Below are positions 5,453 through 54,429 of a DNA stretch of 64,000 nt, piece after piece; the first letter of the stretch is position 1; every line of letters begins with the position of its first letter. The notes under the pieces were generated by a model. The model was not told the DNA's origin. It saw nothing but the letters and a program-made list of their open reading frames with translations, and made no database searches. Source of the stretch: Bacteroidota bacterium (GTDB taxonomy: Bacteria > Bacteroidota > Bacteroidia > JABDFU01). A program made the translations under genes and the position numbers. The stretch is taken from the NCBI GenBank assembly GCA_016183775.1, contig JACPDY010000001.1, positions 2,190 to 66,189 of the forward strand. The letters are read 5' to 3'.

Positions 5453-8400
5453 ATGGAATTTTTAACTGATATCTCAGATTTAACCGGAGACAAAATGAAT
5501 ATAACATCAAATATAGCGACCTCGTTAAATACAAAGTGCTGTAATTTACAATCAGCTATTTTTATCAATATACTCATCCTTGTATTGTTTAGTTTAATTA
5601 TTGGTATATGTCCCGTATATGGTCAACGCTTCGCCAATGCAATTGGCACCGGAAAAGGAGGATCTGATACAGGAGTTAAAAGTGTTGCGAGAGGAAATGG
5701 GATGAGTTTCGCTCCAAATAAGGGACAGATTGTTGATATGGATGGCAAACTCAGGCCGGATGTATTATACCACGGGGGTGGGGGTGGAGCTGATGTATAC
5801 CTGCGTCTAACAGGGATGTCATACGTTTATACTAATATGGGTGAAGTAATTAATGAGGCGGATGAGTATGTGGAGAATTTAATTGAGTCAGGTATAATAA
5901 CCGAGTCGGATGAAAATGAGAAGAAGGAAGATTTTTTGCGTACGCAAAATGTAAAGATGCATAGGGTGGATATGGATTTCCTGAATTGCATGACAAGCAT
6001 AAGTTGTGTTAACGAAGATGAACTGGAAGGTTGCGAGAATTATTATTATGCACATTGCCCGCTTGGAGTAACCAATGTAAAGCAGTATAACAGGGTCACT
6101 TATAAAAATATTTATAAAAATATTGATGTGGTTTATTGCGGTGACCGACAAAATGGTATTAAATATGATCTGGTTGTACAACCACATGCTGATCCGAATC
6201 AGATACAGCTCAACTGGAAAGGCGCCGAGCATATATATATTGACCGACAAGGTGGCCTGGTGATCAAAACAAGTGTAAATGAATTTTATGAATCAATACC
6301 CAGGGTTTATCAGAATATAAATGGGCAAATTGTTGATGTTGATGCCAGGTATATTCTTAATGGAACCGTTGTGACCTTTGAACTTGGAACCTGGAACCCG
6401 GAGTTTCCTTTGATTATTGATCCCTGGGCAACCTATTTTTCAGGGACATCGGGTGCAATCCAATCCTGTTCAGGCAGCGATATTGCTACGGATGGATTTG
6501 GGAATGTAGCCTCAACAGGCTGGACAGCTTCAGGTAGTTTGCCGGTTAGTGCAGGTTCATTCCAGGCAAGTTACAGGGGTTCAGGTGATTGTTTTGTGAC
6601 CAAATTTTCCATTTCAGGGGCACGTATTTTTGGTACATACTTTGGCGGGTCGTCAAATGATTATGGTTTTGGTTTGACAATTGATGGCAATAATGATATT
6701 TTGGTTTCTGGAAAAACTCAATCCGGTAATTTTCCAACCATGAATGCCGGCGGAGGTGCTTATTTTCAGGCTGCCAGTGCAGGAGGATTTGACGCTTTCA
6801 TTGCCAAATTCACTCCTGCCGGGGTCCTCACATGGTCTACACTATATGGCGGCTCATTAGCTGATGAAGGAATAGATGTGAAAACCGATGGTGCAAACAA
6901 TGTAGTGCTTGTTGGAACAACGCAGTCTGTTAGCTTTCCCGTACAGGCACCTTATCAGGCGGTAATTGGTGCTGGTGCAACACAAAACGCATTTGTGGTA
7001 AAATTTAACAGTAATTGTGTAAGACAATGGGCAACCTATTACGGAGGATCAAGTCGTGACGGTGCAGTTGGGGTTGCCTGCAATGCGGTAGGAGATATTT
7101 TTGTTACCGGTTATACAAGCTCAACTAATTTTCCTGTAATGTCGGGTTATCAAATGACTTCCGGTGGATCTACAGATGCATTTGCATTGAAGTTATCAGG
7201 AGCAAATGGTTTTCCGGTTTGGTCTACTTATTATGGAGGTTCTGATATTGATCATAGTTTTTCTATAGCAGTGGATGGTGCAGGTGATGTTGTTTTTGTT
7301 GGAAACATGAGGTCTACTGGTTTTATTCAAAGTTCCGGGGCAAATCAAACTATTATAGGAGGAGGTATGGGCGATGCTTTTATAGCAAAGTTTAATACTT
7401 CTGGTAATCGTTTATGGGGAACATATCATGGCGGAAGTGATTGGGAAGTTTCAGCGGGATGCGCTATTGATGCGAACAACAATATTTATTGGTATGGAGA
7501 AATTGAGGACAGTCCACCCCGCAGTTTTTTTGTCAGCCAATGTGCGTATCAACCATATAGGTATCAACATCAACCGCAAATTGCCGGTCCGGATGACGAG
7601 GATTTTTATATTTCAAAATTTGATCCGAATGGAACACTTCTTTGTACAACTACCTTTGGCGGGCCCAATGAAGAGGATGGTGATCAGAATCCGCATACGG
7701 ATATTGCAATATTTGGCAAATATATTTATGCTACGGGTTGGGTCTCCGATAATTTCCCCGTTACTTCCGGGGCATTTCAAACCACATCGGTACCGAGGCC
7801 CAATGGTGGAAATGCATTCATTGCTCAATTGTGTATTAATATTTGTCAGCCTAAATTCATTGGCATTGATAATGTGGCAGCGAGTCAAACAATAGTTTGT
7901 CCTAATGTTCCAATCGCTTTTACATCAGCCGTAAATAAAACAACCTGCAGTGATACCACATTAAAATTTAAATGGACTTTTACCGGCGGCACACCGAACA
8001 CTTCAATTGTTCAAAATCCGACAATTACATATAGCACTCCCGGACTCTATACGGTAAAGTTGGTTGTAAATAATCTTTGTCAAACAGATTCTGTGATAAA
8101 AACAAATTATATCCTTGTTCAGCCATGCGCAATAAGTGCTTCAGCAACGGGCGCTACAGTTTGTCCGAATAGTTGCGCCAATATAACAGCTGCCGGCCTT
8201 AGCGGAACAAATCCGTATACTTACAAATGGAGCACAGGAGCTAATACTTCTGTAATTAATGTTTGCCCCGCTGCTACAACAGCTTACACAGTCACAGTAA
8301 CTGATGCCTCAGGAAACTCTGCTACGGTGGCGGCATTGGTAAATGTAAGATTCTCGGTCATTGCTACCACTTCAAGTTCAAATATTAAATGCAATAATGT

Positions 8401-9522: not shown

Positions 9523-12468
9523 TTATTTGATCGCGTTGTAGATCTCCTTTTGAATTTTACTGCGTATTCCCATTTTGGAAAGTTTGTTTATTTCTGCATC
9601 AGGATAAACACGGTTGGAAAGAAAAACATACACAAGATTCTTTGCGGGGTCGGCCCATGTAATTGTACCTGTAAATCCGGAATGACCATAGCTGAGATAC
9701 GACACACAATCACATACCGGGCTTTCTTTGGTTGAATTAGTCTCCGGTTTGTCAAATCCAACGGCTCTCCTGTTGTCGGTGCAATACTGGCAACGGGTGA
9801 ACTCACTTACTATTGCCGTATCAAGGTATCTGACACCTCCGTATTCTCCTTTTTGCATGAACATTTGCGTAAGTATGGCCAGGTCGTTCGCGTTGGCAAA
9901 TAGGCCTGCATGTCCTCCAACACCTCCCATCATTGCCGCGCCCTGATCATGAACATCACCATGGACCAATTGCTTGCGGAATTTCACATCATATTCGGTT
10001 GGTGGTATTCTGGTTAACTCAAATCGCGCACGTGGAAGATAACTCATGGTTGAAAGTCCGAGAGGAGTGTAAAAATTTTTTGACACATATTCATTCAATG
10101 GCATTCCTGTTTTTTGTTCAATGATTTTTTTGAGATAGTAATATCCCAGGTCGCTGTATTTGTACCGGCCGGCTTCTTTTACTTCGGAGTTGGCGATTTC
10201 TTTGTAAATAGTATCCGTGTAATTTTTTCGAATATACATATCGTTCGCCACACGTACAGGGAAAGAATCGCTTTGCGTTTTACTGTAGATGCCAGGTTTG
10301 TATTGTCCTTTTTTCACGGTATGTAGCCAGAAAGGGATCCAGTCGCGCAGTCCGGCCTGGTGTGCCATCATTTCCCGGATAATAATATTAGCCTTATTGG
10401 TTCCTTCGAGTTCCGGAAGATGATAGCACAACCGATCGTCTAATTTTATTTTATGTTCTTCAACCATTTTCATTAGTGAAGGTGCTGAAGCTGCAATCTT
10501 GGTTACCGAAGCCAGATCATATATATCGGTATTGGTCACAGCGCGCTTGTTCTCATAAGTATGATAGCCGAATGATTTCAGGTAGATTACTTTACCCTCT
10601 TTTGCGACAAGAATTTCACAGCCGGGGTAAGCTTTTTCTTTTATACCATACAATGCAATGGTGTCTATCCTGTCGAAATCAGAACTTGAAAGACCGAGTT
10701 CTTCAGGTATGGTATACTTAAAGCGTCCCAGGCCGGTTGTTTCAATGCCGGAACCAAATTTAAAATTTGCAGAAGCGGTAACCGGCAGTTTTCCATTTAC
10801 ACCGATTGCGCCAAAAATAAGTTGTGCGGAAAGGCTTTGAGTCAGCTCATTATCTTCATAAGATAAAATAACTCCATCCGCATTTTGAAGACTATCAATG
10901 CGTAGAAGAATATATGGATTGGCGCTTACATTGACAATAGTTTTGTTTTGCCTCATTACTTCTTGCAATACCTTTGAGGATTGATCAGTGAATCCAAAAT
11001 TTTTAACGGGCGAATTATTTGTGTTATTTACGTGAACGACAACGAGATTGTATGCTTTTAGCCATTTTACCACCGAATCGCATTCCGATGGTTTTGCGGT
11101 TCTGTCAAGGCCAAAATGTTTAACCGGTGCGTAGTACCCAAGCATTTCCTGGAATTGATTCGTGGTTTTATATCCAAGCGATAATGACGCGATCTTAAGG
11201 GTGTCCAATTTTTGTAATGGAATCACGTTGTTTTTATTTTGTAGTAATGTAAGTGAAGCTTCAACCAGCTTGCGGTTGATAAGGTCTGCTTGAGGTGTAT
11301 TCAGATCCTTTGTGAGATTTTTGAGTTCAATTGGAGAGTAATGATCAAGGCCGCACCATTGCTTGGCAAGCAGTATTTTTTTGCAGCGTTTGTCAATTTC
11401 TTCCTGTGTGATATCTCCTTTAGCGATCGCTTTTTTAATTTCAATGATCGCTGTTGGTACGTCTTCCGCAAATAATAACACATCATTTCCTGCCAGGAGC
11501 GCTTTCACATTTACAACTCCGGGAGGATAAAATTTGCTTACCCCCTTCATGTTAAGCGCATCTGTAAAAACAAGGCCGCTGAATTTTAATTCATCTTTAA
11601 GTAGACCTGTAACAATAGTTTTGGATAGGGTAGAGGCAGTGTTTTTTGTGGAGTCAAGTGAAGGAATAAATAAATGAGCTACCATTAAGCTGCCAAGTCC
11701 TTTTTCCATTAGTTGTTTAAATGGATACAGATCCAGTGAATCAAGCAGTTCTTTGGAGTGTTTGATAGTTGGTAATGTTTTATGTGAATCGCTGTCCGTA
11801 TCACCATGTCCTGGAAAATGTTTGGCATTTGCCATTACTCCATTGTCCTGCATCCCTTTCATGTACATTGTGGCTTTTCGGGCCACCAGGTATTTATTTT
11901 CACCGAATGAGCGGTTGCTGATAACCGGATTGAGCGGATTGCTGTTAATATCAACAACGGGCGCGAGATTAACATGTATTCCTAAGCGTTTGCATTGTCG
12001 TGCTATTTCGGCACCCATTTGGTAGATCAATGTATCATTTTGTATGGCACCGAGCGACATTTGCCGCGGAAACTGAGTTGTGCTGTCCAATCGCATAGCC
12101 AAACCCCATTCGCCATCAATTGAGATCATCAACGGAACTTTGGACAAGCTTTGGTATTCATTGGTCAGTATGGCTTCGCGTACCGGGCCTCCCTGGAAAA
12201 AAATAAGCCCGCCTATATGGTATTTGGAAACCAGTTCTTTTATATCATCTACATGGTTTTTGTCCTTGTTTGAATAGGCCGCCACCATAAAAAGCTGGGC
12301 AATGCGTTCATCCGGACTTAATGTTAGATAAACGGAATCTGCCCAGTGGGTATTGGTTAAGGCGTAAAACGGAACGGAGTTATCGGGGGCTTGCTTAAAG
12401 CCGGCAAACAGCAGCGCAGCTGCAGACAGAATGAATATTGAAACCCGCTGGTATACAATTTTTCGCAT
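9523..12468 (-). CDS. Glycoside hydrolase family 3 (NagZ-like beta-N-acetylhexosaminidase) fused to a serine beta-lactamase/PBP-like hydrolase domain
   Basis: GH3 motif KHFPGHGDTDSDSHK is present, and the C-terminal half has S-x-x-K (ASVTKIAA). The track ORF starts at 12573, but the ATG at 12466-12468 gives MRKIVYQRVSIFILSAAALLFAG, a proper signal peptide. The upstream extension has no such character. Confidence 0.85.
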   Translation of the reverse strand: MRKIVYQRVSIFILSAAALLFAGFKQAPDNSVPFYALTNTHWADSVYLTLSPDERIAQLFMVAAYSNKDKNHVDDIKELVSKYHIGGLIFFQGGPVREAILTNEYQSLSKVPLMISIDGEWGLAMRLDSTTQFPRQMSLGAIQNDTLIYQMGAEIARQCKRLGIHVNLAPVVDINSNPLNPVISNRSFGENKYLVARKATMYMKGMQDNGVMANAKHFPGHGDTDSDSHKTLPTIKHSKELLDSLDLYPFKQLMEKGLGSLMVAHLFIPSLDSTKNTASTLSKTIVTGLLKDELKFSGLVFTDALNMKGVSKFYPPGVVNVKALLAGNDVLLFAEDVPTAIIEIKKAIAKGDITQEEIDKRCKKILLAKQWCGLDHYSPIELKNLTKDLNTPQADLINRKLVEASLTLLQNKNNVIPLQKLDTLKIASLSLGYKTTNQFQEMLGYYAPVKHFGLDRTAKPSECDSVVKWLKAYNLVVVHVNNTNNSPVKNFGFTDQSSKVLQEVMRQNKTIVNVSANPYILLRIDSLQNADGVILSYEDNELTQSLSAQLIFGAIGVNGKLPVTASANFKFGSGIETTGLGRFKYTIPEELGLSSSDFDRIDTIALYGIKEKAYPGCEILVAKEGKVIYLKSFGYHTYENKRAVTNTDIYDLASVTKIAASAPSLMKMVEEHKIKLDDRLCYHLPELEGTNKANIIIREMMAHQAGLRDWIPFWLHTVKKGQYKPGIYSKTQSDSFPVRVANDMYIRKNYTDTIYKEIANSEVKEAGRYKYSDLGYYYLKKIIEQKTGMPLNEYVSKNFYTPLGLSTMSYLPRARFELTRIPPTEYDVKFRKQLVHGDVHDQGAAMMGGVGGHAGLFANANDLAILTQMFMQKGEYGGVRYLDTAIVSEFTRCQYCTDNRRAVGFDKPETNSTKESPVCDCVSYLSYGHSGFTGTITWADPAKNLVYVFLSNRVYPDAEINKLSKMGIRSKIQKEIYNAIK

Positions 12469-20121: not shown

Positions 20122-20916
20122 ATGAAACTCGAATCAATTTGCTTCAAAGTTTGTGAACTAACCGAACAGGTTGGTGGCTATATTAAGCAGGAGTTAACTA
20201 AAGTGCGATCGCAGCATGTGGAAGTAAAAGGGAAAAATGATTTTGTTACCTATGTTGATAAAGGTGCCGAACAATTATTAGTAGCCGGCCTTGGTAAACT
20301 TATTCCCAAGGCAGGTTTTATTGCGGAAGAAAACACATCGTCAGCCAAAGGAGAAACATATAATTGGGTCATTGATCCACTTGACGGCACAACCAATTTT
20401 ATTCATGGTTTGCCTTGCTATTCAATAAGCATAGGTCTTCTGAGGGATAATACACCTGTAATGGGAGTCGTCCACGAACTTAACCTCAGTGAATGTTTTT
20501 ACGCCTGGGGAAACAGCAAAGCTTATTGCAATAAAACTGAAATTAAGGTAACGCAGGCAGCTCTATTAAAAGACACATTGGTCGCTACGGGTTTTCCTTA
20601 CTATAATTACGATCGTCTGGATGAATACATGGAGTTTTTCAAGCACCTGATGAGGGAAACACATGGCTTGCGCAGGTTGGGTTCTGCCGCCGTTGACCTA
20701 GCTTATGTGGCCTGTGGGCGGTTCGACGCTTTTTATGAATACGGGCTTCGTCCCTGGGATGTGGCAGGCGGAGCGTTCATTGTTCAACAGGCGGGCGGGA
20801 AGATAACGGACTTTGGCGGAGGCGACAATTATATTTTTGGCAGGGAGCTGATTGCATGTACTCCGGGTATTCACAATGAGTTTATAAACAGTTTGCAGCA
20901 ATATTTCAAAAAATGA
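20122..20916 (+). CDS. Inositol monophosphatase family protein (SuhB/CysQ-like)
   Basis: Motifs WVIDPLDGTTNF and GSAAVDLAYVACGRFDAF. Confidence 0.88.
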   Translation: MKLESICFKVCELTEQVGGYIKQELTKVRSQHVEVKGKNDFVTYVDKGAEQLLVAGLGKLIPKAGFIAEENTSSAKGETYNWVIDPLDGTTNFIHGLPCYSISIGLLRDNTPVMGVVHELNLSECFYAWGNSKAYCNKTEIKVTQAALLKDTLVATGFPYYNYDRLDEYMEFFKHLMRETHGLRRLGSAAVDLAYVACGRFDAFYEYGLRPWDVAGGAFIVQQAGGKITDFGGGDNYIFGRELIACTPGIHNEFINSLQQYFKK

Positions 20917-21029
20917 AGAAATTTATTTTGGAAATCTACCACAAGTATAAAGATTATGTTCCCGCTGACTTGTGGGCCTTTTTAATTTTCATTATTATCA
21001 CGATCATCGGGCTTATTATAGTGCTTTGA
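20913..21029 (+). CDS. Possible 38-aa single-TM small protein
   Basis: ATGA overlap with the IMPase stop codon. The sequence MKKFILEIYHKYKDYVPADLWAFLIFIIITIIGLIIVL has a clean C-terminal TM helix. It is below the ORF-track size cut-off. Confidence 0.3.
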   Translation: MKKFILEIYHKYKDYVPADLWAFLIFIIITIIGLIIVL

Positions 21030-21070
21030 TATACCGGTTCTTAGTCAATTTAAGGATTTTTCATCCGCCA

Positions 21071-21095
21071 AACCTGCCTGACCGGCAGGCAGGTT
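21071..21095. repeat. Palindrome AACCTGCCTG-ACCGG-CAGGCAGGTT
   Basis: Perfect 10-bp stem with a 5-nt loop. A near-identical copy lies inside the CDS at 54033-54057. Confidence 0.85.
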
Positions 21096-21295
21096 GGTTT
21101 AGAACCGTTTATGCCGAACATTAAAATCCTTTAACCCAACTTATGCAGTAGAAGGGAGTAAAGCGACTGAACTATTTATGCCCTTTTCGGGTATCTGCAT
21201 TAGTTGGGTTTATCCCGATTTACTTGTGCCCATGGGTAGAAAATCACCTTGAAGGTTGAATGAAATGAAGCCTGAAAGCCTGATTTTCTTAATCG

Positions 21296-21324
21296 CTATG
21301 CATTAGAGATTTTCTAATGCATAG
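21296..21324 (-). terminator. Hairpin downstream of the 21349-22854 gene
   Basis: CTATGCATTAG-agatttt-CTAATGCATAG, an 11-bp perfect stem that ends 25 nt before the stop codon at 21349 (i.e. downstream on the - strand). There is no strong U-tract. Confidence 0.45.
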
Positions 21325-21348
21325 TTTGGGGTAGTAAAAGGAGTGTGA

Positions 21349-22854
21349 TCACGAATTTTTTTCCAAGGCTTTTTCTTTCACCACTTTGGCAAAATGTTTT
21401 CCTGTTATTTTACTTTCCGCCCAACATAATATAAAATCAGTCTGTGATCTTTTCTCTTCGGATTCTTTTTTTCTGATCTTTTCTACTTCATCTCTGAATA
21501 TGATCAGTTCGGCTATAAGTTCTTTTTTGCTATTGATCTTCGGGATCTTTTTCCTGATAAAATTCAGGATAGCATGATCCGTTTTGTATAAAATATTTCT
21601 TTTCTGTAAATACCGGAAAGTCGATCTAACTGCATATTGAAGTAATTCCGCATGTCCGAGCTCATAATAAATAATTATGCTGAGCACTTTTGCCATGGAA
21701 TAAACATCGCTTCTGTAATCTATGTTCTGCCGGTTTATTATGTTGTTTATATGTTTGATGGCCATATTGTACTCCTCTGATCCGAAATAAACGATCGAAA
21801 TGGAATAATTAATATGTATAAAATCGGACAGGGTGTATCGGGTGCCTTCATAAATGTGAAACTTTGATTTTATTTGTTTCACTACCTCTATCCCTTTTTC
21901 GAATTTCCCCTGATTATTATAATGCACTAATTCGACAGAGTTAGTAATAATAAATAACCTGTTCCTGGCATTTTCATTTAATGAAGGGAAATTTTCAGGT
22001 AGCGCTTTTAACTTTTGTATGGTCTGAAATGCCTCATCAAATTTTTTGAGTTGATTTTGGCTATTGATCAGATTTCCCAGACAGGCTATATATCTTTCCG
22101 GTATAAGCTCAATATTGTGAGGATGTTTTTCCATCAAGGATACCAGCTTCTTTCTGAAATTATATATCTGAATACGATCCCCTGTATATTCATAATACTG
22201 GCAATAACATAAGTAAAAGCTGAAAAGTGCCTGGTAGGTTTGAGCTTCTTTTTCATCGCTCAGTAAACGATCTTTCATCGCTCTTTTTTTAGTGCTGTCC
22301 GGACCCAGGTATAATTGATGATCCAATAGCAGGTATTCGGTTTGGTTTTTATATTTTTCGACTGTGCTAAGCATTGTTTTGATGACCTGTTCGACTTGTA
22401 CAAAGGGGACATTGTAGTAATTCTTTCTTCGCATTAGCCGGTCTTCCAACTCCATGATCTGAAGTAATGATAACAGCTGCCCATATTTCTCAGCTTTCTT
22501 TTTCGCCTTCGCCACCATTTTCTCAGCCTGCTCCAGCAAACCTTTATCGCGTAATATTTCTATGTAATCAATTTCCGCTTTTAACTTATTTGTAAATGAA
22601 ATATTGGCATTATACGTCCTGAGGCTTCTTAGTATCGCATTATACAGTCTGACTTTTATTACCGAGAGATCCGAAATGTATTTTTCGGTTTTTATTAATT
22701 TTTCCTCATCATATTCCTTTTGTTGTTCAATTACGTCAAAAAAACGCACATAATTGTTTTCGTCGCCTTTACCATGCATTGATGTAAATAATTTAAAATG
22801 TCTTTTTTCCGACTTGCTTAATGACTTAATAAGGGCGAAAAGTTCTTTTGACAC
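21349..22854 (-). CDS. Uncharacterised all-helical (TPR-like) protein, paralog of 3767-5323; candidate regulator/partner of giant paralog 3
   Basis: 501-aa ORF with a GTG start. It has the same N- and C-terminal signatures as 3767-5323 and is divergent from 23096-26392. Confidence 0.8.
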   Translation of the reverse strand: MSKELFALIKSLSKSEKRHFKLFTSMHGKGDENNYVRFFDVIEQQKEYDEEKLIKTEKYISDLSVIKVRLYNAILRSLRTYNANISFTNKLKAEIDYIEILRDKGLLEQAEKMVAKAKKKAEKYGQLLSLLQIMELEDRLMRRKNYYNVPFVQVEQVIKTMLSTVEKYKNQTEYLLLDHQLYLGPDSTKKRAMKDRLLSDEKEAQTYQALFSFYLCYCQYYEYTGDRIQIYNFRKKLVSLMEKHPHNIELIPERYIACLGNLINSQNQLKKFDEAFQTIQKLKALPENFPSLNENARNRLFIITNSVELVHYNNQGKFEKGIEVVKQIKSKFHIYEGTRYTLSDFIHINYSISIVYFGSEEYNMAIKHINNIINRQNIDYRSDVYSMAKVLSIIIYYELGHAELLQYAVRSTFRYLQKRNILYKTDHAILNFIRKKIPKINSKKELIAELIIFRDEVEKIRKKESEEKRSQTDFILCWAESKITGKHFAKVVKEKALEKNS

Positions 22855-41017: not shown

Positions 41018-41084
41018 CGGTTTATTAATTTCGTTACATCTTTTGATCAGGGCTGCCAGTTTAATACTCACACTGCAATGATTT

Positions 41085-41120
41085 CAGGGATGACATCGCT
41101 TCCAAGCGATGTCATCCCTG
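41085..41120. terminator. Perfect 16-bp palindrome CAGGGATGACATCGCT-tcca-AGCGATGTCATCCCTG between convergent genes
   Basis: It lies between the LOG-family stop codon (41017) and the giant gene A stop codon (41125). The left arm recurs at 20079. Confidence 0.6.
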
Positions 41121-41124
41121 ATTA

Positions 41125-48600: not shown

Positions 48601-50081
48601 ACATTTCCCATGTTGTCTGTTACGATAGAATTTCCCCAGTCAGTATTCCCACCACCATATAAAGTGGCCCAAAGGCGAATTCCGGAATTACTGAATTTAA
48701 GGATAAAAACATCGGTTTTATTAGAAAAACCATTGCTGAAATATGCACCACCAGCGGGATTGTACGTGGGGAATGGAGCGACATTGTCAACCCGTTCTGA
48801 GCGCCCTGTTACAAAAATATTTCCCATATTGTCCGTTGCCATAGACTGTGGCATTTCAAACCCGTTTCCTCCATAAAAAGTAGACCAAAGAAGAACACTT
48901 CCAGAAGTAAATTTCATTATAACTAAGTCAAATCCTTGAAATCCTCCCGCATACACTCCGTCAAAATAGGCTCCGCCGCCGGGGTTTAATGTGGGGAAAC
49001 TATTTTGTCCGGCATTCGGTCCGCTAGCCGTGTAAGCACAAATAAATAGATTGCCGGCTGCATCAGTGGCAACATCCATGATACCTCCATCTTGAGCACC
49101 TGCGCCATCTAGAAGAGTACTCCAAATAAGCTGTGGGTCGATGATTAAAGTAGATGTGAGATATGAGATGTGAGATAAGAGATGAAACGAAACAGAAGTT
49201 TCGTACCCTTCATCAACCTGCGTTGGTCGGCAAGAGTTTACATTTGTTTTTACAAATTTAGTTCTGATGCTCTCCCCTGTTTCTTTAATGTAACTAACCG
49301 GCGCGTTTTCTGTTAATGTGCCGTAAGGCGTTTTTATTTCAATGTTTCCCTGTTCATCAAACCGAAGTTTTTTTCCTGAGCGGTAAAGCAATTTAATGTT
49401 CGCTGGAACAGCACCGGGATGTACTTCAAAATCATATTTAAATCCTTTGTTATTGCTGTTATAAAATATCCAGTCGATGCCTGGATATACATTTTTAATA
49501 ATTATTTTGGAGTATGTGTGTACATCTGTCACTCCATTGGGACAATGTCCCAGAAAATATTGGTTAAACATTAAAGACTTGCCTTCCGTAACAATGTTTT
49601 CTTTTTTAATGCTGGCACCCTCCAGGTCCATGTCAATCCGGCTCCAGTTAAATGATTTAAATTCTTCTTCCCCTGTACTGAGCGTAGTCAAAGCATCTTC
49701 TTCTATTGATCCGTACGGTTCGCCTTGTTTATTTTTTTCTTTATTATTGCCTCGGTGTAATCCTTCCGGTTCTTTTTCTTCCTCATCTTTTGTCACACTG
49801 AGCCCCGTCGAAGCGTCTTTTATATCTTCCATGAAACAATAAGTAAGTCCTTTTTCTGTAACAAAGAGGTTCATGCCTGGTGCGGTTACCTGGTATAAAA
49901 CAAAGGGTACAGGTTTTCCCTGCATGTCTGTCATCTGTCCTTTGTTCTCTGTAAATTGTACGGGTTGTTCTTTCAGCCATTGCTGTGCCTGCTTTTTGAG
50001 TTCAGCTTCGTTCTCTGTTTTTGCTGCAAACAATGAAAGGCCTGCGAGAAAAAAAAGTAGGTATGTGAAAAGTTTTTTCAT
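45642..50081 (-). CDS. Giant secreted SBBP / SprB-repeat protein, tandem copy B
   Basis: 1479 aa with the signal MKKLFTYLLFFLAGLSLFAAKTENE and the same architecture as A and C. A 20-nt spacer separates it from gene A. Confidence 0.9.
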   Translation of the reverse strand: MKKLFTYLLFFLAGLSLFAAKTENEAELKKQAQQWLKEQPVQFTENKGQMTDMQGKPVPFVLYQVTAPGMNLFVTEKGLTYCFMEDIKDASTGLSVTKDEEEKEPEGLHRGNNKEKNKQGEPYGSIEEDALTTLSTGEEEFKSFNWSRIDMDLEGASIKKENIVTEGKSLMFNQYFLGHCPNGVTDVHTYSKIIIKNVYPGIDWIFYNSNNKGFKYDFEVHPGAVPANIKLLYRSGKKLRFDEQGNIEIKTPYGTLTENAPVSYIKETGESIRTKFVKTNVNSCRPTQVDEGYETSVSFHLLSHISYLTSTLIIDPQLIWSTLLDGAGAQDGGIMDVATDAAGNLFICAYTASGPNAGQNSFPTLNPGGGAYFDGVYAGGFQGFDLVIMKFTSGSVLLWSTFYGGNGFEMPQSMATDNMGNIFVTGRSERVDNVAPFPTYNPAGGAYFSNGFSNKTDVFILKFSNSGIRLWATLYGGGNTDWGNSIVTDNMGNVFVTGWTNSMMTVGNPPQFPTYNPGGGAYFQVPNSSGMMDLFILKFNNTGILLWATCYGGNEDEAGHSIVVDNFGNVFITGVSGVFENPSLNSSSFPIYTPAGTYSQSYGGGSNYAGVFNGDVIILKFSNNGVRLWATFYGGKGNDYGYSIATDCSGNVFITGSTKSTDLPTLSPGGNSYYKSTLSGYSDAFILKFDNNGMRLWATYYGGSSAEYSLGLLPSILARGPAELLTHNNIQTDECGHLFVSFETGSSDIPVQFLSGAYFDGTSNGSNDIYLARFSNTGVLQWGTYFGGNGNDFRSPITLDNVGNLFVGGEWTEFNSAAVSNTTYPLANAGVGTYFNNSFNGGRDDMYIAKLGFKPESSTTLESEQHNPIGCNACNGKVKVTAQCDMPGISYIWSTGRTVLNTAVTSDSISGLCAGNYWVEVTSACGNKDTARFSLSDINCGCSMSASIVENPSIKCFGATGGAIVTVSNGPAGPYTYSWSNGTKAITSSVSNQATNLQAGTYTVTVNTGSCVSVSTIVLSQPTPLLPKITQPVCAANLGTATASASGGFPPYLYTWSTGSTSPTATGLGLGAYSVTITDSKGCASSELTSIYEPMSVSTSSENIACTGYSYAGVTASGPTLYSYTYSWSNGSTVGGNCGNPCLNKNLAAGTYTVTVTDGNGCTVTRSVTITGSSAASATFTSPPVCLNQPSCFTHTGSAGTHSWTIEAPVNVSGTTTNFCTTFLTAGTYSVTHTVTNAGCTNAVTQYINVTNCNSPAITTTGASVCPGVCATITASAVGGAPPYTYLWSNGVTTQNNTPAPCPLVTTTYTVTIKDTGGNTSTSTAVVTVNPAVTVNTTATNISCNGGTNGNANANPTSGTPGFTYSWSNLVSGSTVSGLSAGNYTITLTDSKGCTATSTTAITSPPPLSVLFTKGTANCIGCGCKEWIMINATGGIEPYSYTWPDGYVNRYKNQLCPGTYSINVKDKNGCSVNVNLTAP
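49151..49185. repeat. In-CDS 5 x 7-nt array, TGAGATN family
   Basis: GTAGATG TGAGATA TGAGATG TGAGATA AGAGATG. It is read on the - strand as ..LLSHISYLTST.. in the linker before the first propeller blade of gene B. Confidence 0.85.
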
Positions 50082-50103: not shown

Positions 50104-53100
50104 TCAGGGTGCTGTAAGATTAACATTCACACTGCATCCATTCTTATCCTTAATGTTAATTGTATATGTTCCCGGACAAAGCTGATTTTTATACCTGTTC
50201 ACATATCCATCCGGCCATGTGTAGCTGTATGGATTTGTACCTCCTGCAGCGTTAATAATTATCCATTCTTTGCATCCACAACCACTGCAGCTTGCTGTTC
50301 CTTTTGTAAATTGTCCTGACAAGGGTGGAGGAGAAGTTATAGTGGCTGTTGATGTTGCTGTACAACCTTTGCTATCTGTTACTGTAACTGTGTAGATCTG
50401 AGATGTGAGATTTGAGATCTGAGATGTTGTTCCGCCATTACTCCAGGTGTAAATAAATCCTGGCGTACCATTGTTTGGATTTGCATTCGCGCTGCCGTTT
50501 GTGCTACCGTTGCAGTTTATGTTGGTTACAGTTGTGCTTAAGCTAACAGAAGGATTAACATTGACTACTGCGGTTGTAGTAGATGTATTTCCGCCGGAGT
50601 CGGTTACGGTTACAGTATATATTGTAGTTGCAGCAGGGCAGGGGTTTATATTTTGTGTAGTTGCGCCGTTATTCCACAAATAGGTATAAGGGCCGGTGCC
50701 GCCTGTACTACTTGATGTTATTGCTGCACAGGAGCCCGGACATACAGAGGTGCCGGTAGCTGTAACCGTTGGGCCATTACAATTAGTTCCATTTATATAT
50801 TGGGTTACTGTATTGGTGCATCCTGCGTTTGAAACTGTATGGGTAACACTATAGGTACCTGCGGTTAAAAAGGTATAACAAAAATTTGTTGTTGAGCCGC
50901 TTACACTCACAGGTGGTCCAATGGACCACGTATGTGTGCCTGCAGAACCCGTATGTGTAAAACAAGTGGCCTGATTTATGCAGGCTGGCGGGGCAGTAAA
51001 AGTTGCTGAAGCTGCACTTGATCCTGTAATGGTAACCGAACGGGTAACTGTACATTCATTACCATCGGTTACTGTAACTGTATATGTTCCCGCCGCGAGG
51101 TTTTTATTCAGGCAGGGGTTGCCACAATTTCCTCCTACTGTAGAGCCATTACTCCAGCTGTAAGTATAAGGGGATGTGCCAAAATTAGTGGTTATGCCTG
51201 CATAACTGTACCCGCTACAGGTAATATTTCCGCTGCTAGGACCCACAAGCATTGGTTCCTTAATTGATGTGAGTTCAGATGAAGTGCATCCTTTGGAGTC
51301 GGTAATGGTAACTGTATATGTTCCCAGATTTAATCCAGTTGCTGCTGGTGATGTGGAGCCGGTACTCCATGAGTACAAATAAGGAGGGGATCCACCTGTG
51401 GCGCTTGCTGTGGCTGTACCTAAATTTGCCGCGCAAACCGGCTGGGTAATTTTAGGGATAACAGGAAGTGGTTGACTTAGCGTTACGGAGGATACGGAGA
51501 CACAGGAACCGGTAATTACTCTTACAGTATATGTTCCGGCTGGCAAGTTTGTTGCCTGATTTAAGGTCGAAGAAGTAATGGCGTTAGTGCCATTACTCCA
51601 ATTATAGGTATAAGGGCCGCCGGGCCCGTTGCTTACTGTTACTATCGCGCCTCCTGTTGTGCCTATACATTTGATACCGGGGCTTTCAATAATGGAGGCA
51701 GACATACTGCATCCGCAATTAACATTGCTAAGTGAAAACCAGGCTGTGTCTTTTTCCCCGCAGGCGGAAGTTACTTCAACCCAGTAATTACCCGCGCATA
51801 AACCGGATATACTATCGGATGCCGCCGTGATGTTCAAAACAGTTCGTCCGGTACTCCATACATAACTTAAGCCGGCCATATCGCATTTGGCGGTTACTTT
51901 TGCTTTTCCGTTGCAGGCGCTGCATCCCACAGGATTATCCTGCCGGCTTTCCAGCTTATTTATTTCCGGCTCAAAACCAAGTTTGGCAATATACATGTCA
52001 TCCCTGCCGCCATTGAATGAATTATCATAATAAGCCCCTCCACCCGGAGTTGTAAGCGGATAGGTAGCATTGTTTATTGATGGGATATTATTAATAGTCC
52101 ACTCTCCGGCAACGAACAAATTTCCGAAATCATCTAACGCTATTGGGCTTCGAAAATCATTCCCATCGCCGCCGAAATAGGTACCCCATTGTAAAACTCC
52201 TGTATTGGAAAAACGGGCCAGGTAAATATCGTTATACCCGTTAAAAGTTCCGTCAAAATAGGCTCCTGAAAGAAATTGCACAGGAATGTCGGATGACCCT
52301 GTTTCAAACGACACAAAGAGATGCCCGCATTCATCCGTTTGTATATTGCTCCAGGTTGGTATAGCCGGTACAACACCATCATCGTATTCATTCATAGCAC
52401 CCCCATAATAAGTTGCCCAAAGCCTTTTTCCGGCGTTGTCGAATTTAAGGATAAACGCATCGTTGCTGCCACTTAATATTGATTTATAGTAGGAATTTCC
52501 GCCGGTATTAAGGGTAGGTAGATCGGTTGATTTAGTTGAACCTGTTACAAAAACATTACCGCTGCAATCGGTGGCTATGGAATTGCCAACATCAGAATCA
52601 GAACCGCCATAAAAAGTTGCCCAAAGCTGAACGCCACTGCTGCTGAATTTTAAAATAAAAGCGTCTCCACCATACAATCCATAACACATGCAAACAGTTG
52701 AGAATGGGCCCCCGCCATAAGCCTGAAAGTATGCCCCTGCCGGGCCCGGATTGGTGGGGAAATTATTTGATGGCGTTTTAGTTGCACCTGTTTTTCCTGT
52801 TACAAATACATTTCCAATTCCATCCACAGCTATGGAGTTGCCGGTATCTTCCGCAGAACCGCCATAAAAGGTTGCCCATTGCCTTATTCCCGAATTTGTG
52901 AATTTCAGAATAAACGCATCTGTTCCATTGGCTGCGTTTGCTCCCTGGAAGTATGCTCCTCCCAAGGCGTTTTGAGTTGGGAAAGTAGTTTGGGGAGGGG
53001 TATTATAATGAGAGATTGTGTACCCTGTCACAAACACATTTCCCGCATTATCCGTAATTATAGAATTTCCTCGGTCATCTCCACCACCTCCGTAATAGGT

Positions 53101-54429
53101 GGCCCACAGACGAACTCCGGCATTATTGAATTTCAGAATAAAGACGTCGGAACCATTCATAGTCCCGGAACCTCCTGCAAATGCCCCCTGGAAGTATGCT
53201 CCCGCACCTGGATTTTGAGTGGGAAAATTCGCTGTTGATGAATTATAAATGGGGTCATATCCGGATCCCGTATACCCCGTTACAAAAACATTTCCGGCAT
53301 TGTCAACAGTTATGGAATTGGCGAGATCTTTTTCGCCGCCACCATAATAAGTTGACCAAAGGCAAACACCTGATGGATTAAATTTTAAAATCACTGCATC
53401 TAAATATGCGAAAAAAGCCCCCCCTCCGTACACTCCCTGAAAATAAGCGCCGTTTCCGGGATTTATTGTAGGAAAAGTATTCTGAGTCACGTTGCCACCT
53501 GTATAACCACAAATAAATAGATTGCCAGCTGCATCAGTAGCAATATCCATGAAACCTCCATCCTGACTGGTCCAACTGGGAGAACTTGCGCCATCGTAAA
53601 ATGTTGACCAAACAAGTTGAGGGTCGATGATTAGGGTTCCGGGTTCAAGGTTCCGGGTTCCGTGTTCTAAATTAAATACAACTTGTGTTTCGTACCCTTC
53701 ATCAACCTGTGTGGGGCGGCAAGTAGTTACTTTTGTTTTTACAAATTTAGTTCTGATGTTCTCACCGGTTTCTTTAATGTAACTTATCGGCGCGTTTTCG
53801 GTTAATGTGCCGTATGGTGTTTGTATTTGTATATTGCCTTCTTGGTCAAAATGAAGGCGCTTGCCGGACCGGTAAAGTAATTTAATACTACCGGGATCAG
53901 CCCCGGGATGTACAGCAAAATCATATTTAAATCCTTTTTCGCCGCTGTTGTAAAATACCCAGTCAATACCGGGATAGATTTCTTTAATAGTAATTTTTGT
54001 ATAACTATGCACATCCAATACCCCATCTGGACAACCTGCCTTGCCGGCAGGCAGGTGACCCAGGTAGTACTGGTTAAAAGAATTTGATCTGCCTTCGGTT
54101 ATAATATTCGATTTTTTAATAGAAGCTCCTGCAAGGCCCATGTCAATGCGGCTCCAGTTAAATGGTTTAAATTCGCCTTCCTCCTCCGTAGGTACGGGTA
54201 ATCCCGTTTTTTCTTCGCGTTCGTTTTCCATGCTGAGCGCCGTCGAAGCATCTTTTACTTCTTCCATAAAGCAATACGTAAGTCCCTTTTCAGTAATAAA
54301 AAGATTCACGCCCGGTGCTCCGACCTGGAAAAGAACAAATGGTACAGGTTTGCCATTCATATCTGTCATAATAGTGGAGAGCATTAATATTCCATATTTG
54401 CAGGAAATATTTAAAAATCTATGGTTCAT
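50104..54429 (-). CDS. Giant SBBP / SprB-repeat protein, tandem copy C, 5'-truncated (no signal peptide; possible silent or pseudogene copy)
   Basis: The reading frame is intact, but similarity to copy B begins exactly at the Met codon at 54367-54369 (MTDMNGKPVPFVLFQ...). The 20 upstream codons (MNHRFLNISCKYGILMLSTI) are unrelated. The signal peptide and the AAKTENE...QAQQWL...F.ENKGQ segment are missing. Confidence 0.75.
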   Translation of the reverse strand: MNHRFLNISCKYGILMLSTIMTDMNGKPVPFVLFQVGAPGVNLFITEKGLTYCFMEEVKDASTALSMENEREEKTGLPVPTEEEGEFKPFNWSRIDMGLAGASIKKSNIITEGRSNSFNQYYLGHLPAGKAGCPDGVLDVHSYTKITIKEIYPGIDWVFYNSGEKGFKYDFAVHPGADPGSIKLLYRSGKRLHFDQEGNIQIQTPYGTLTENAPISYIKETGENIRTKFVKTKVTTCRPTQVDEGYETQVVFNLEHGTRNLEPGTLIIDPQLVWSTFYDGASSPSWTSQDGGFMDIATDAAGNLFICGYTGGNVTQNTFPTINPGNGAYFQGVYGGGAFFAYLDAVILKFNPSGVCLWSTYYGGGEKDLANSITVDNAGNVFVTGYTGSGYDPIYNSSTANFPTQNPGAGAYFQGAFAGGSGTMNGSDVFILKFNNAGVRLWATYYGGGGDDRGNSIITDNAGNVFVTGYTISHYNTPPQTTFPTQNALGGAYFQGANAANGTDAFILKFTNSGIRQWATFYGGSAEDTGNSIAVDGIGNVFVTGKTGATKTPSNNFPTNPGPAGAYFQAYGGGPFSTVCMCYGLYGGDAFILKFSSSGVQLWATFYGGSDSDVGNSIATDCSGNVFVTGSTKSTDLPTLNTGGNSYYKSILSGSNDAFILKFDNAGKRLWATYYGGAMNEYDDGVVPAIPTWSNIQTDECGHLFVSFETGSSDIPVQFLSGAYFDGTFNGYNDIYLARFSNTGVLQWGTYFGGDGNDFRSPIALDDFGNLFVAGEWTINNIPSINNATYPLTTPGGGAYYDNSFNGGRDDMYIAKLGFEPEINKLESRQDNPVGCSACNGKAKVTAKCDMAGLSYVWSTGRTVLNITAASDSISGLCAGNYWVEVTSACGEKDTAWFSLSNVNCGCSMSASIIESPGIKCIGTTGGAIVTVSNGPGGPYTYNWSNGTNAITSSTLNQATNLPAGTYTVRVITGSCVSVSSVTLSQPLPVIPKITQPVCAANLGTATASATGGSPPYLYSWSTGSTSPAATGLNLGTYTVTITDSKGCTSSELTSIKEPMLVGPSSGNITCSGYSYAGITTNFGTSPYTYSWSNGSTVGGNCGNPCLNKNLAAGTYTVTVTDGNECTVTRSVTITGSSAASATFTAPPACINQATCFTHTGSAGTHTWSIGPPVSVSGSTTNFCYTFLTAGTYSVTHTVSNAGCTNTVTQYINGTNCNGPTVTATGTSVCPGSCAAITSSSTGGTGPYTYLWNNGATTQNINPCPAATTIYTVTVTDSGGNTSTTTAVVNVNPSVSLSTTVTNINCNGSTNGSANANPNNGTPGFIYTWSNGGTTSQISNLTSQIYTVTVTDSKGCTATSTATITSPPPLSGQFTKGTASCSGCGCKEWIIINAAGGTNPYSYTWPDGYVNRYKNQLCPGTYTINIKDKNGCSVNVNLTAP
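50392..50426. repeat. In-CDS 5 x 7-nt array, TGAGATN family
   Basis: GTAGATC TGAGATG TGAGATT TGAGATC TGAGATG. It encodes ..TSQISNLTSQIY.. in the penultimate SprB repeat of gene C. Confidence 0.85.
53634..53668. repeat. In-CDS 5 x 7-nt array, GGGTTCM family
   Basis: GGGTTCC GGGTTCA AGGTTCC GGGTTCC GTGTTCT. It encodes ..EHGTRNLEPGT.. at the site homologous to 49151-49185. Confidence 0.85.
54033..54057. repeat. In-CDS copy of the AACCTGCCT..CCGGCAGGCAGGT palindrome (in-frame 21-nt insertion)
   Basis: AACCTGCCTTGCCGGCAGGCAGGTG matches 21071-21095 at 22 of 25 positions. It adds LPAGKAG inside the otherwise conserved GHCP.G motif. Confidence 0.85.

Follow-up and report, generated by a model that had tools for sequence, protein, structure and literature searches.

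A probable in-frame copy of a dispersed 20- to 21-nt palindromic repeat in a giant surface-protein gene of a groundwater Bacteroidota bacterium

Two copies of a short palindrome in the window

The DNA analyzed here, referred to below as the window, is a 64-kb stretch (40% G+C) from a groundwater Bacteroidota bacterium. It carries several duplicated genes for giant surface proteins, one of which, gene C (positions 50104 to 54429, minus strand), codes for a 1441-residue protein with SBBP/SprB repeats and an N-terminal DUF7948 domain (Pfam). The subject of this report is a GC-rich palindromic unit, built on the perfect 20-mer CCTGCCTGCCGGCAGGCAGG, that is found once within gene C (54035 to 54055, minus strand; CCTGCCTGCCGGCAAGGCAGG), where it encodes (H)LPAGKAG, and once in an intergenic spacer (21073 to 21093; CCTGCCTGACCGGCAGGCAGG).

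An earlier note on this DNA had paired two 25-nt stretches, one in the spacer at 21071 to 21095 (AACCTGCCTGACCGGCAGGCAGGTT, with a 10-bp stem and an ACCGG loop) and the other in the coding sequence at 54033 to 54057 (AACCTGCCTTGCCGGCAGGCAGGTG), as identical at 22 of 25 positions. Positions and sequences were confirmed on re-reading, and the similarity exceeds that in shuffled DNA, as a match with 3 or fewer mismatches did not arise once in 100 shuffles of the window that preserved dinucleotides. Each copy equals the perfect 20-nt palindrome CCTGCCTGCCGGCAGGCAGG with a single extra base at its center (A for the spacer copy, T for that of gene C), so that the two are closer to each other than the 22/25 figure suggests. 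In the spacer, A/T bases of the host flanks lengthen the stem to 10 bp. In gene C, the AA and TG at the ends of the 25-mer belong to the host flank, since they match the TTGTCC and GGGTCA seen in the paralogs, which have TTGTCC or TTGCCC in place of the AA flank. Of the 25-nt palindrome that had been described as the insert, the exact length of 21 extra nucleotides therefore stands, but the inserted DNA is the 21-nt core and the two outermost bases on either side are those of the host. With this adjustment, the proposal that one and the same unit occurs both as intergenic DNA and as an in-frame insert in a coding sequence holds, the copies at 21073 to 21093 and 54035 to 54055 being members of the same repeat family. 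The bases that flank the window copies are gccaaa before and ttgg after one of them and ggacaa before and tgac after the other. No third copy within 4 edits of the consensus was found in the 64-kb window.

An insertion in a predicted loop of gene C

The site of the insertion is empty in the other members of the gene family. Six-frame searches and DNA alignments located the uninterrupted motif, of the GH-CPxG type, as GHCPNG in paralog B (49533 to 49550, minus strand), GHCPEG in paralog 1 (1155 to 1172, plus strand), and AHCPLG in paralog 2 (6050 to 6067, plus strand), where gene C has GH-LPAGKAG-CPDG, with the insert forming residues 126 to 132. In the DNA alignment with the paralogs, the 21 extra bases sit between GGGTCA and TTGTCC and bear no relation to the flanking host sequence. 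The insertion of exactly 7 codons with preservation of the reading frame is thus as the earlier note had read it.

Homologs of gene C come exclusively from Bacteroidota. The elements xH and CPxG are contiguous in the approximately 68 homologs in which the motif could be parsed, and intervening residues are seen in C only. The nearest relative of C is paralog B, with 64% identity over the N-terminal 320 residues, followed by the next best homolog at 58%. Judged from these comparisons, the insertion, which is missing from B, from paralogs 1 and 2, and from the approximately 68 homologs, appears to be derived in C. The survey of relatives that had been proposed as a check therefore favors a gain, and the opposite scenario, in which the element has only two copies and an ancestral sequence was lost from the paralogs, is contradicted both by this survey and by the wide occurrence of the family described below.

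An AlphaFold2 model of residues 1 to 320 of C (52 sequences, mean predicted local distance difference test score [pLDDT] of 79) places LPAGKAG in a coil (residues 122 to 136) between two strands, with pLDDT values of 66 to 74 compared with 92 to 97 on either side. The insertion site is therefore predicted to be a loop of the DUF7948 domain.

The 5' end of gene C shows a separate peculiarity. Homology between C and B begins at MTDMNGKPV (region 54370 to 54429, upstream to 54710). In the source sequencing runs, which were examined as assembled Logan contigs, one contig of run X3 has 111 extra letters between 54369 and 54370, and run X1 has a loose end at 54370 on the minus strand that resembles a signal peptide. 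These differences at 54370 suggest that the region is structurally polymorphic or that C has been truncated at its 5' end.

A dispersed family of ultra-short palindromes

A search of a genome collection with the pattern CCTGCCT-N(1-4)-CGGCAGGCAGG, in which the arms are fixed, retrieved at least 120 contigs from about ten phyla. Among the matches listed are members of Patescibacteria, Bacteroidota, Ignavibacteriota, Omnitrophota, Planctomycetota, Nitrospirota, Chloroflexota, Acidobacteriota, and Gamma- and "Delta"-proteobacteria, including the cultured isolates Winogradskyella echinorum, Olivibacter oleidegradans, Arenibacter, and Gracilimonas. These listed matches comprise 130 copies, 55 of which are the perfect 20-mer CCTGCCTGCCGGCAGGCAGG and 22 of which are CCTGCCTACCGGCAGGCAGG; the remainder are variants of 19 to 22 nt that differ at the center, and the flanks are unrelated. 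The exact 21-mer of gene C, CCTGCCTTGCCGGCAGGCAGG, is found in six other genome loci among the same matches.

The pattern was also found in 101 stretches of viral contig DNA in a viral collection. As controls, five palindromes of like composition and structure were run against that collection; two of these, too, consist of tetranucleotide repeats. The five controls gave 4, 6, 7, 9, and 11 matches, which makes them 9 to 25 times rarer. The genome and viral loci together number more than 220, and several of them contain 2 to 6 copies each. Both copies in the window belong to this dispersed and specific family of ultra-short GC-rich palindromic repeats.

Some viral loci are unusual in their arrangement. 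One 29.5-kb viral contig (represented by loci L175, L186, and L191) holds at least 6 copies, and in L175 the palindromes at 2648 to 2667 and 10690 to 10709 are preceded by GTAG and lie inside a longer repeated unit; they are the only copies with a tag of the type known from repetitive extragenic palindromes (REPs). Phage contigs also contain tandem arrays of the 21-nt unit CCATGCCTACCGGCAGGCAGG (L214, 3923 to 4142; L212, 4725 to 4758; and L152, 6703 to 6943), and the array in L214, with at least 11 copies, extends to the end of the contig, with several of its frames open.

Copies read in frame in unrelated proteins

In credible genes, the unit is read in the frame xC CTG CCT GCC GGC AGG CAG Gxx, which yields LPAGRQ(A/G/V) from the 20-nt form and LPAGKAG, LPAGQAG, LPAGEAG, or LPVRQAG from the 21-nt forms. 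Neither the frame used in gene C, which gives LPAGKAG, nor any other of the translated frames has a stop codon within the unit. Nine host proteins were confirmed by Pfam matches: MurB, TrmD, FtsK, an ATP-dependent DNA ligase, an RfbB-like dehydratase, a pseudouridine synthase, RsmI, RecO, and HisRS. The insert falls within the matched Pfam stretch in seven of them; in the DNA ligase it follows the matched domains, and in HisRS it is N-terminal to the domains. Among the matches listed, the 21-nt forms are overrepresented in coding sequence (5/9 versus 17/121 copies; P = 0.007). The earlier note had compared the insertion in C with the palindromic elements of Rickettsia, and the occurrence of in-frame copies in many unrelated proteins, next to intergenic copies and at a frequency far above that of the controls, agrees with that comparison.

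Two other proteins of the SBBP family (P0017 and P0072), encoded on other contigs, carry LPAGQAG at positions that differ from that in C and represent independent insertions of the unit. At the DNA level, the copy in the SBBP homolog locus L246 is aCTGCCTGCCGGACAGGCAGGt, and the one in L247 has decayed. One of the SBBP contigs with LPAGQAG shares its sequencing run with a contig of the organism that the window represents.

In FtsK of Patescibacteria, a loop between RDIKSYN and LPYLLIVIDE is empty in most relatives, holds the perfect palindrome in several lineages and 21-nt variants in others, and is doubly filled, with one unit inside another, in L249. This loop, examined in loci L030 (unit at 5955 to 5974), L250, L249, and L251 (empty), is an insertion hot spot. 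Removal of 20 nt from L030 restores AACGGCGG, as found in the empty L251, and the comparison is suggestive, if not proof, of a 20-nt insertion accompanied by a compensating +1 base approximately 20 nt downstream. The perfect palindrome is retained in FtsK across lineages whose proteins differ by 14 to 19%, which suggests re-insertion, gene conversion, or a constraint at the DNA level.

Insertion without target duplication

Comparison of a filled 5' fragment of a tRNA with the intact tRNA next to it, in L087, L203, and L043, shows exactly 20 added nucleotides and no target-site duplication (TSD) in all three cases; the insertion is exact and occurs without duplication of the target. Copies also insert into each other: nested copies, placed one base off the center of another copy, are seen among the matches listed in L032, L104, L045, L097, and L052, as well as in L249.

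The 258 flanks share no conserved tetranucleotide, T seldom stands immediately 5' of the unit and A seldom immediately 3' of it, and there is a weak period-7 excess in the flanks. Two general rules were considered and rejected. Palindromic target sites were one of them: the complementarity of the flanks is at chance level, and empty sites fold only slightly better than controls (P = 0.011). The other was a TSD, which is excluded as a rule by the three exact tRNA cases. Direct repeats of 7 to 8 nt flank 6 of 240 copies, with approximately 0.04 expected by chance. The loci with such repeats are L071, L105, L111, L130, L166, and L219, and L017 has an imperfect one; in addition, many copies from Bacteroidota adjoin short heptamer-like tandem repeats.

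tRNA fragments and GIY-YIG genes

A recurrent module was recognized in four loci: L087 (2105 to 2480), L043 (3446 to 3900), L203 (494 to 870), and L327 (1 to 420). It starts with a 5' fragment of a tRNA that carries the 20-nt palindrome in its D-arm, followed by a small open reading frame (ORF) for a GIY-YIG protein that lies approximately 20 to 70 nt from the palindrome. An intact or second copy of the tRNA follows the GIY-YIG ORF in L087, L043, and L203, and in L327 the unit of fragment, palindrome, and ORF is found in tandem. L035 and L069 resemble remnants of such modules without the ORF, and a few more loci encode a GIY-YIG protein within 8 kb of a copy. The same layout is also seen in L089 (860 to 1100), with a different GC-rich palindrome in that place.

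Because the gene for a small GIY-YIG nuclease of the Slx1/UPF0213 type is repeatedly found beside the copies in pseudo-tRNAs, we infer that this nuclease is the leading candidate for the enzyme involved in the spread of the palindrome.

Interpretation and alternative explanations

The reading that we favor, with a probability of about 0.85, is that the insert in gene C is a derived in-frame copy of a dispersed family of palindromic repeats. Following the duplication that gave rise to B and C, a single 21-nt unit would have entered codon His-125 of gene C without a TSD. The insert would simply be read as LPAGKAG, since its length is 3 × 7, its frame contains no stop codon, and its site is a predicted loop. 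The spacer copy would then be a family member at a location typical of such repeats, in a group of hairpins that separates convergent genes. Much more tentative is the mechanism, whereby the unit would be non-autonomous and propagated in trans through breakage and repair or by the action of a nuclease; with a GIY-YIG gene adjoining the palindrome in four loci only, and none found in the window, we would regard it as a working suggestion that may well be wrong. A bolder proposal, and a still more doubtful one, is that CCTGCCTGCCGGCAGGCAGG is a horizontally spreading 20-nt "nano-element" of about ten phyla and their phages, which would be moved in trans by tRNA-homing GIY-YIG (Slx1/UPF0213-type) modules, would have no terminal repeats beyond itself and produce no TSD, and would colonize essential genes by virtue of 21-nt or 20 + 1 read-through.

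Several observations weigh against this interpretation as a whole. The window contains just two copies in 64 kb, and the controls show that a few matches per pattern do arise by chance. The spread across phyla is based largely on metagenome-assembled genomes, in which contamination could inflate it. Gene C lacks a signal peptide and approximately 45 N-terminal residues that are present in B, and it may therefore be decaying, in which case its tolerance of an insert would be trivial. At the site in C, the palindrome interrupts the Logan contigs of runs X2 and X3, which are thus uninformative with respect to polymorphism. As for the movement of the unit, a GIY-YIG gene stands directly beside a copy in L087, L043, L203, and L327 only, no GIY-YIG gene was found in the window, no mobilizing enzyme was identified, and the copies taken together show no consistent target motif or TSD.

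Three alternatives deny that a mobile repeat has entered gene C at all. The palindrome might have arisen locally, for example by template switching at the quasi-palindrome GGGACATTGTCCC, and resemble the spacer copy by chance. The insert does lie exactly at the center of a quasi-palindrome of 13 nt that paralog B still shows (GGGACA followed by TTGTCCC), the information content of a hairpin is approximately half its length, and the window offers two copies only. However, the inserted bases are unrelated to the host flanks, the identical 21-mer is present in six other genome loci of a family of more than 220, and matched controls are 9 to 25 times rarer, all of which makes a local origin very improbable. 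A possibility that we consider hardly credible is that the ancestral gene of the family already had LPAGKAG and that every other member has lost it: although no close ortholog of C is on record, the nearest homolog outside the paralogs being 58% identical, the contiguous motif in the three paralogs of the window and in approximately 68 homologs would require many independent deletions of exactly 21 nt. An error of assembly or sequencing, which the broken contigs of X2 and X3 might bring to mind, is equally hard to credit, given that a contig of run X1 spans 53700 to 54366 without a difference, that the reading frame is preserved, and that the family turns up in isolates grown in culture and in assemblies that many different studies and sequencing technologies have produced.

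Two further alternatives accept the family but explain it in another way, and both seem improbable to us. The hairpin, or the LPAG(K/R) peptide, could be kept by selection because it forms an RNA structure within the gene, binds a protein as a palindrome, or supplies a useful loop, as might be argued from the strong fold of the gene C copy on the mRNA strand (-23.5 kcal/mol) and from the palindrome of Patescibacteria that has stayed perfect while FtsK diverged. Yet the same unit is found in unrelated proteins, pseudo-tRNA fragments, phage genes, and noncoding DNA, no common functional context was seen, and decayed copies exist (L247 and P0122). Alternatively, the palindrome could represent the joined terminal inverted repeats of a larger element that has since lost its GIY-YIG cargo. 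The proximity of GIY-YIG ORFs in the four modules would fit such an origin, as would the mainly central position of the variation, which is partly built in, since the search pattern fixed the arms. In these modules, however, the whole palindrome is on one side of the ORF, inside the tRNA fragment. Moreover, the 10 matches to CCTGCCTGCC-N(225-286)-GGCAGGCAGG in viral contigs contained no GIY-YIG cargo, and the only one of 148 metagenome matches with a spacing of N(240-270) that had a GIY-YIG gene consists of two full palindromes that flank a tandem module. Many other half-site matches in metagenomes are (CCTG)n microsatellites or chance occurrences in GC-rich DNA. Scans for a half-site, an ORF, and a second half-site thus lend no support to joined ends of a cargo-carrying element as the source of the CCTGCCTGCCGGCAGGCAGG family.

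Relation to known palindromic repeats

The kind of element that gene C appears to have acquired, a palindromic repeat that can sit within genes, is already in print in the form of intragenic REPs, Rickettsia palindromic elements (RPEs), and mitochondrial GC clusters. RPEs were reportedly described by Ogata and colleagues in 2000 as inserted in frame into genes for unrelated proteins, where they are tolerated. RPE-1 is approximately 100 to 150 bp long and encodes tens of residues. The family described here resembles RPEs in being a palindromic repeat that is inserted in frame in protein genes, as predicted here from the DNA of gene C. It differs from RPE-1 in size, with a unit of 20 to 21 nt and 7 residues, and in hosts, which are Bacteroidota and many other phyla instead of Rickettsiales. 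The CCTGCCTGCCGGCAGGCAGG family is not a member of the RPE family, from which it is set apart by its size, its lineages, and its lack of a tag.

MITEs (miniature inverted-repeat transposable elements) of prokaryotes, with lengths of 50 to 500 bp, have terminal inverted repeats and TSDs. In addition, palindromic repeats with coding potential are said to have been found in Methanocaldococcus jannaschii by Suyama and colleagues in 2005. Like the repeats of M. jannaschii and MITEs, the family comprises short non-autonomous inverted-repeat elements that can sit in coding sequence; unlike MITEs, CCTGCCTGCCGGCAGGCAGG is a bare 20-nt palindrome (20 to 21 nt as a unit) without a TSD in three exact comparisons.

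REPs are units of 20 to 40 bp, found for the most part where convergent or unidirectional genes adjoin (Di Nocera et al. 2013, PMC3733652). Some of them lie wholly inside ORFs, particularly those for DNA repair and RNA-modifying enzymes, and are translated, and the intragenic REPs with GTAG/CGTC tags include RPE-4 and RPE-6 of Rickettsia (PMC3733652). The CCTGCCTGCCGGCAGGCAGG family shares with REPs a palindromic unit of 20 to 40 bp and, like them, has copies between convergent genes and inside ORFs. In contrast to REPs, which have an unpaired GTAG/CGTC tag, are specific to a species or genus, and are found as inverted dimers, its copies lack such a tag (in 258 flanks, with GTAG preceding only the copies in L175), have an identical core across about ten phyla and phages, and are single. 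REPs are also marked by high copy numbers in individual genomes and by an association with RAYT/Y1 transposase genes; for the present family, the counts are 2 copies in the 64-kb window, at least 9 further contigs in the source metagenome, and up to 6 copies in one 29.5-kb phage contig.

GC clusters of yeast mitochondria proliferate, cross species boundaries, and merge or nest into new units (Wu and Hao 2015, PMC4478555). They resemble the present family as GC-rich palindromes in AT-rich genomes that encode no enzyme and undergo nesting, and they differ from it in being organellar, in size (GC42 has 42 nt), and in having reported TSDs, of which there are none in the three exact cases here.

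The literature, searched with the DNA and peptide strings as well as by topic, yielded no description of an untagged CCTGCCTGCCGGCAGGCAGG family that crosses phyla. Its main interest lies in the identity of the unit across phyla and in its presence in essential genes. If CCTGCCTGCCGGCAGGCAGG really moves, its 20 nt would be near the lower size limit for mobile DNA, and selfish hairpins would be adding loops to proteins, including the essential FtsK, MurB, and TrmD, across distant bacteria and phages. In annotation, such 7-residue inserts would then be taken as repeat derived and not as lineage-specific functional motifs. The palindrome and the peptide signature LPAG[RKQE][QA][AG] provide a searchable marker for horizontal spread, and the suspected link between small GIY-YIG nucleases, tRNA genes, and GC-rich palindromes has become testable.

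The spacer copy and other repeats in the window

The intergenic copy is flanked by convergent genes, an IMPase gene on the plus strand (20122 to 20916) and an unassigned ORF on the minus strand (21349 to 22854). Its RNA would fold with -21.3 kcal/mol (z = -3.9), which makes it a strong stem-loop, but there is no T tract downstream and a terminator scan does not call it. By analogy with the role proposed for REPs (PMC3733652), it probably serves as an RNA hairpin of the 3'-end or terminator type. No Rfam 15 covariance model matched positions 20880 to 21380 at an E value of 1 or less.

The spacer copy is part of a larger segment of approximately 90 nt (21028 to 21116), bounded by the outer inverted repeat CGGTTCT/AGAACCG, that is present in multiple copies in the source metagenome, with a summed contig depth of 125 to 200x against a baseline of 7.4x. 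At least 9 other contigs of this groundwater metagenome contain the palindrome, in some cases with partly matching flanks; the flanks of the spacer copy have no match in any of the loci retrieved for the family. Other parts of the same spacer are also multicopy (21028 to 21060, 21172 to 21219, and 21284 to 21331, with depths of up to 200x against 7.4x), among them a hairpin at 21296 to 21324, and the IMPase spacer is a patchwork of repeated hairpin units.

Finally, just downstream of the giant gene A, positions 41084 to 41121 form an inverted repeat (TCAGGGATGACATCGCTT and AAGCGATGTCATCCCTGA) with perfectly matched arms of 18 bp around a loop of 2 nt; it represents a palindrome family different from that of CCTGCCTGCCGGCAGGCAGG.

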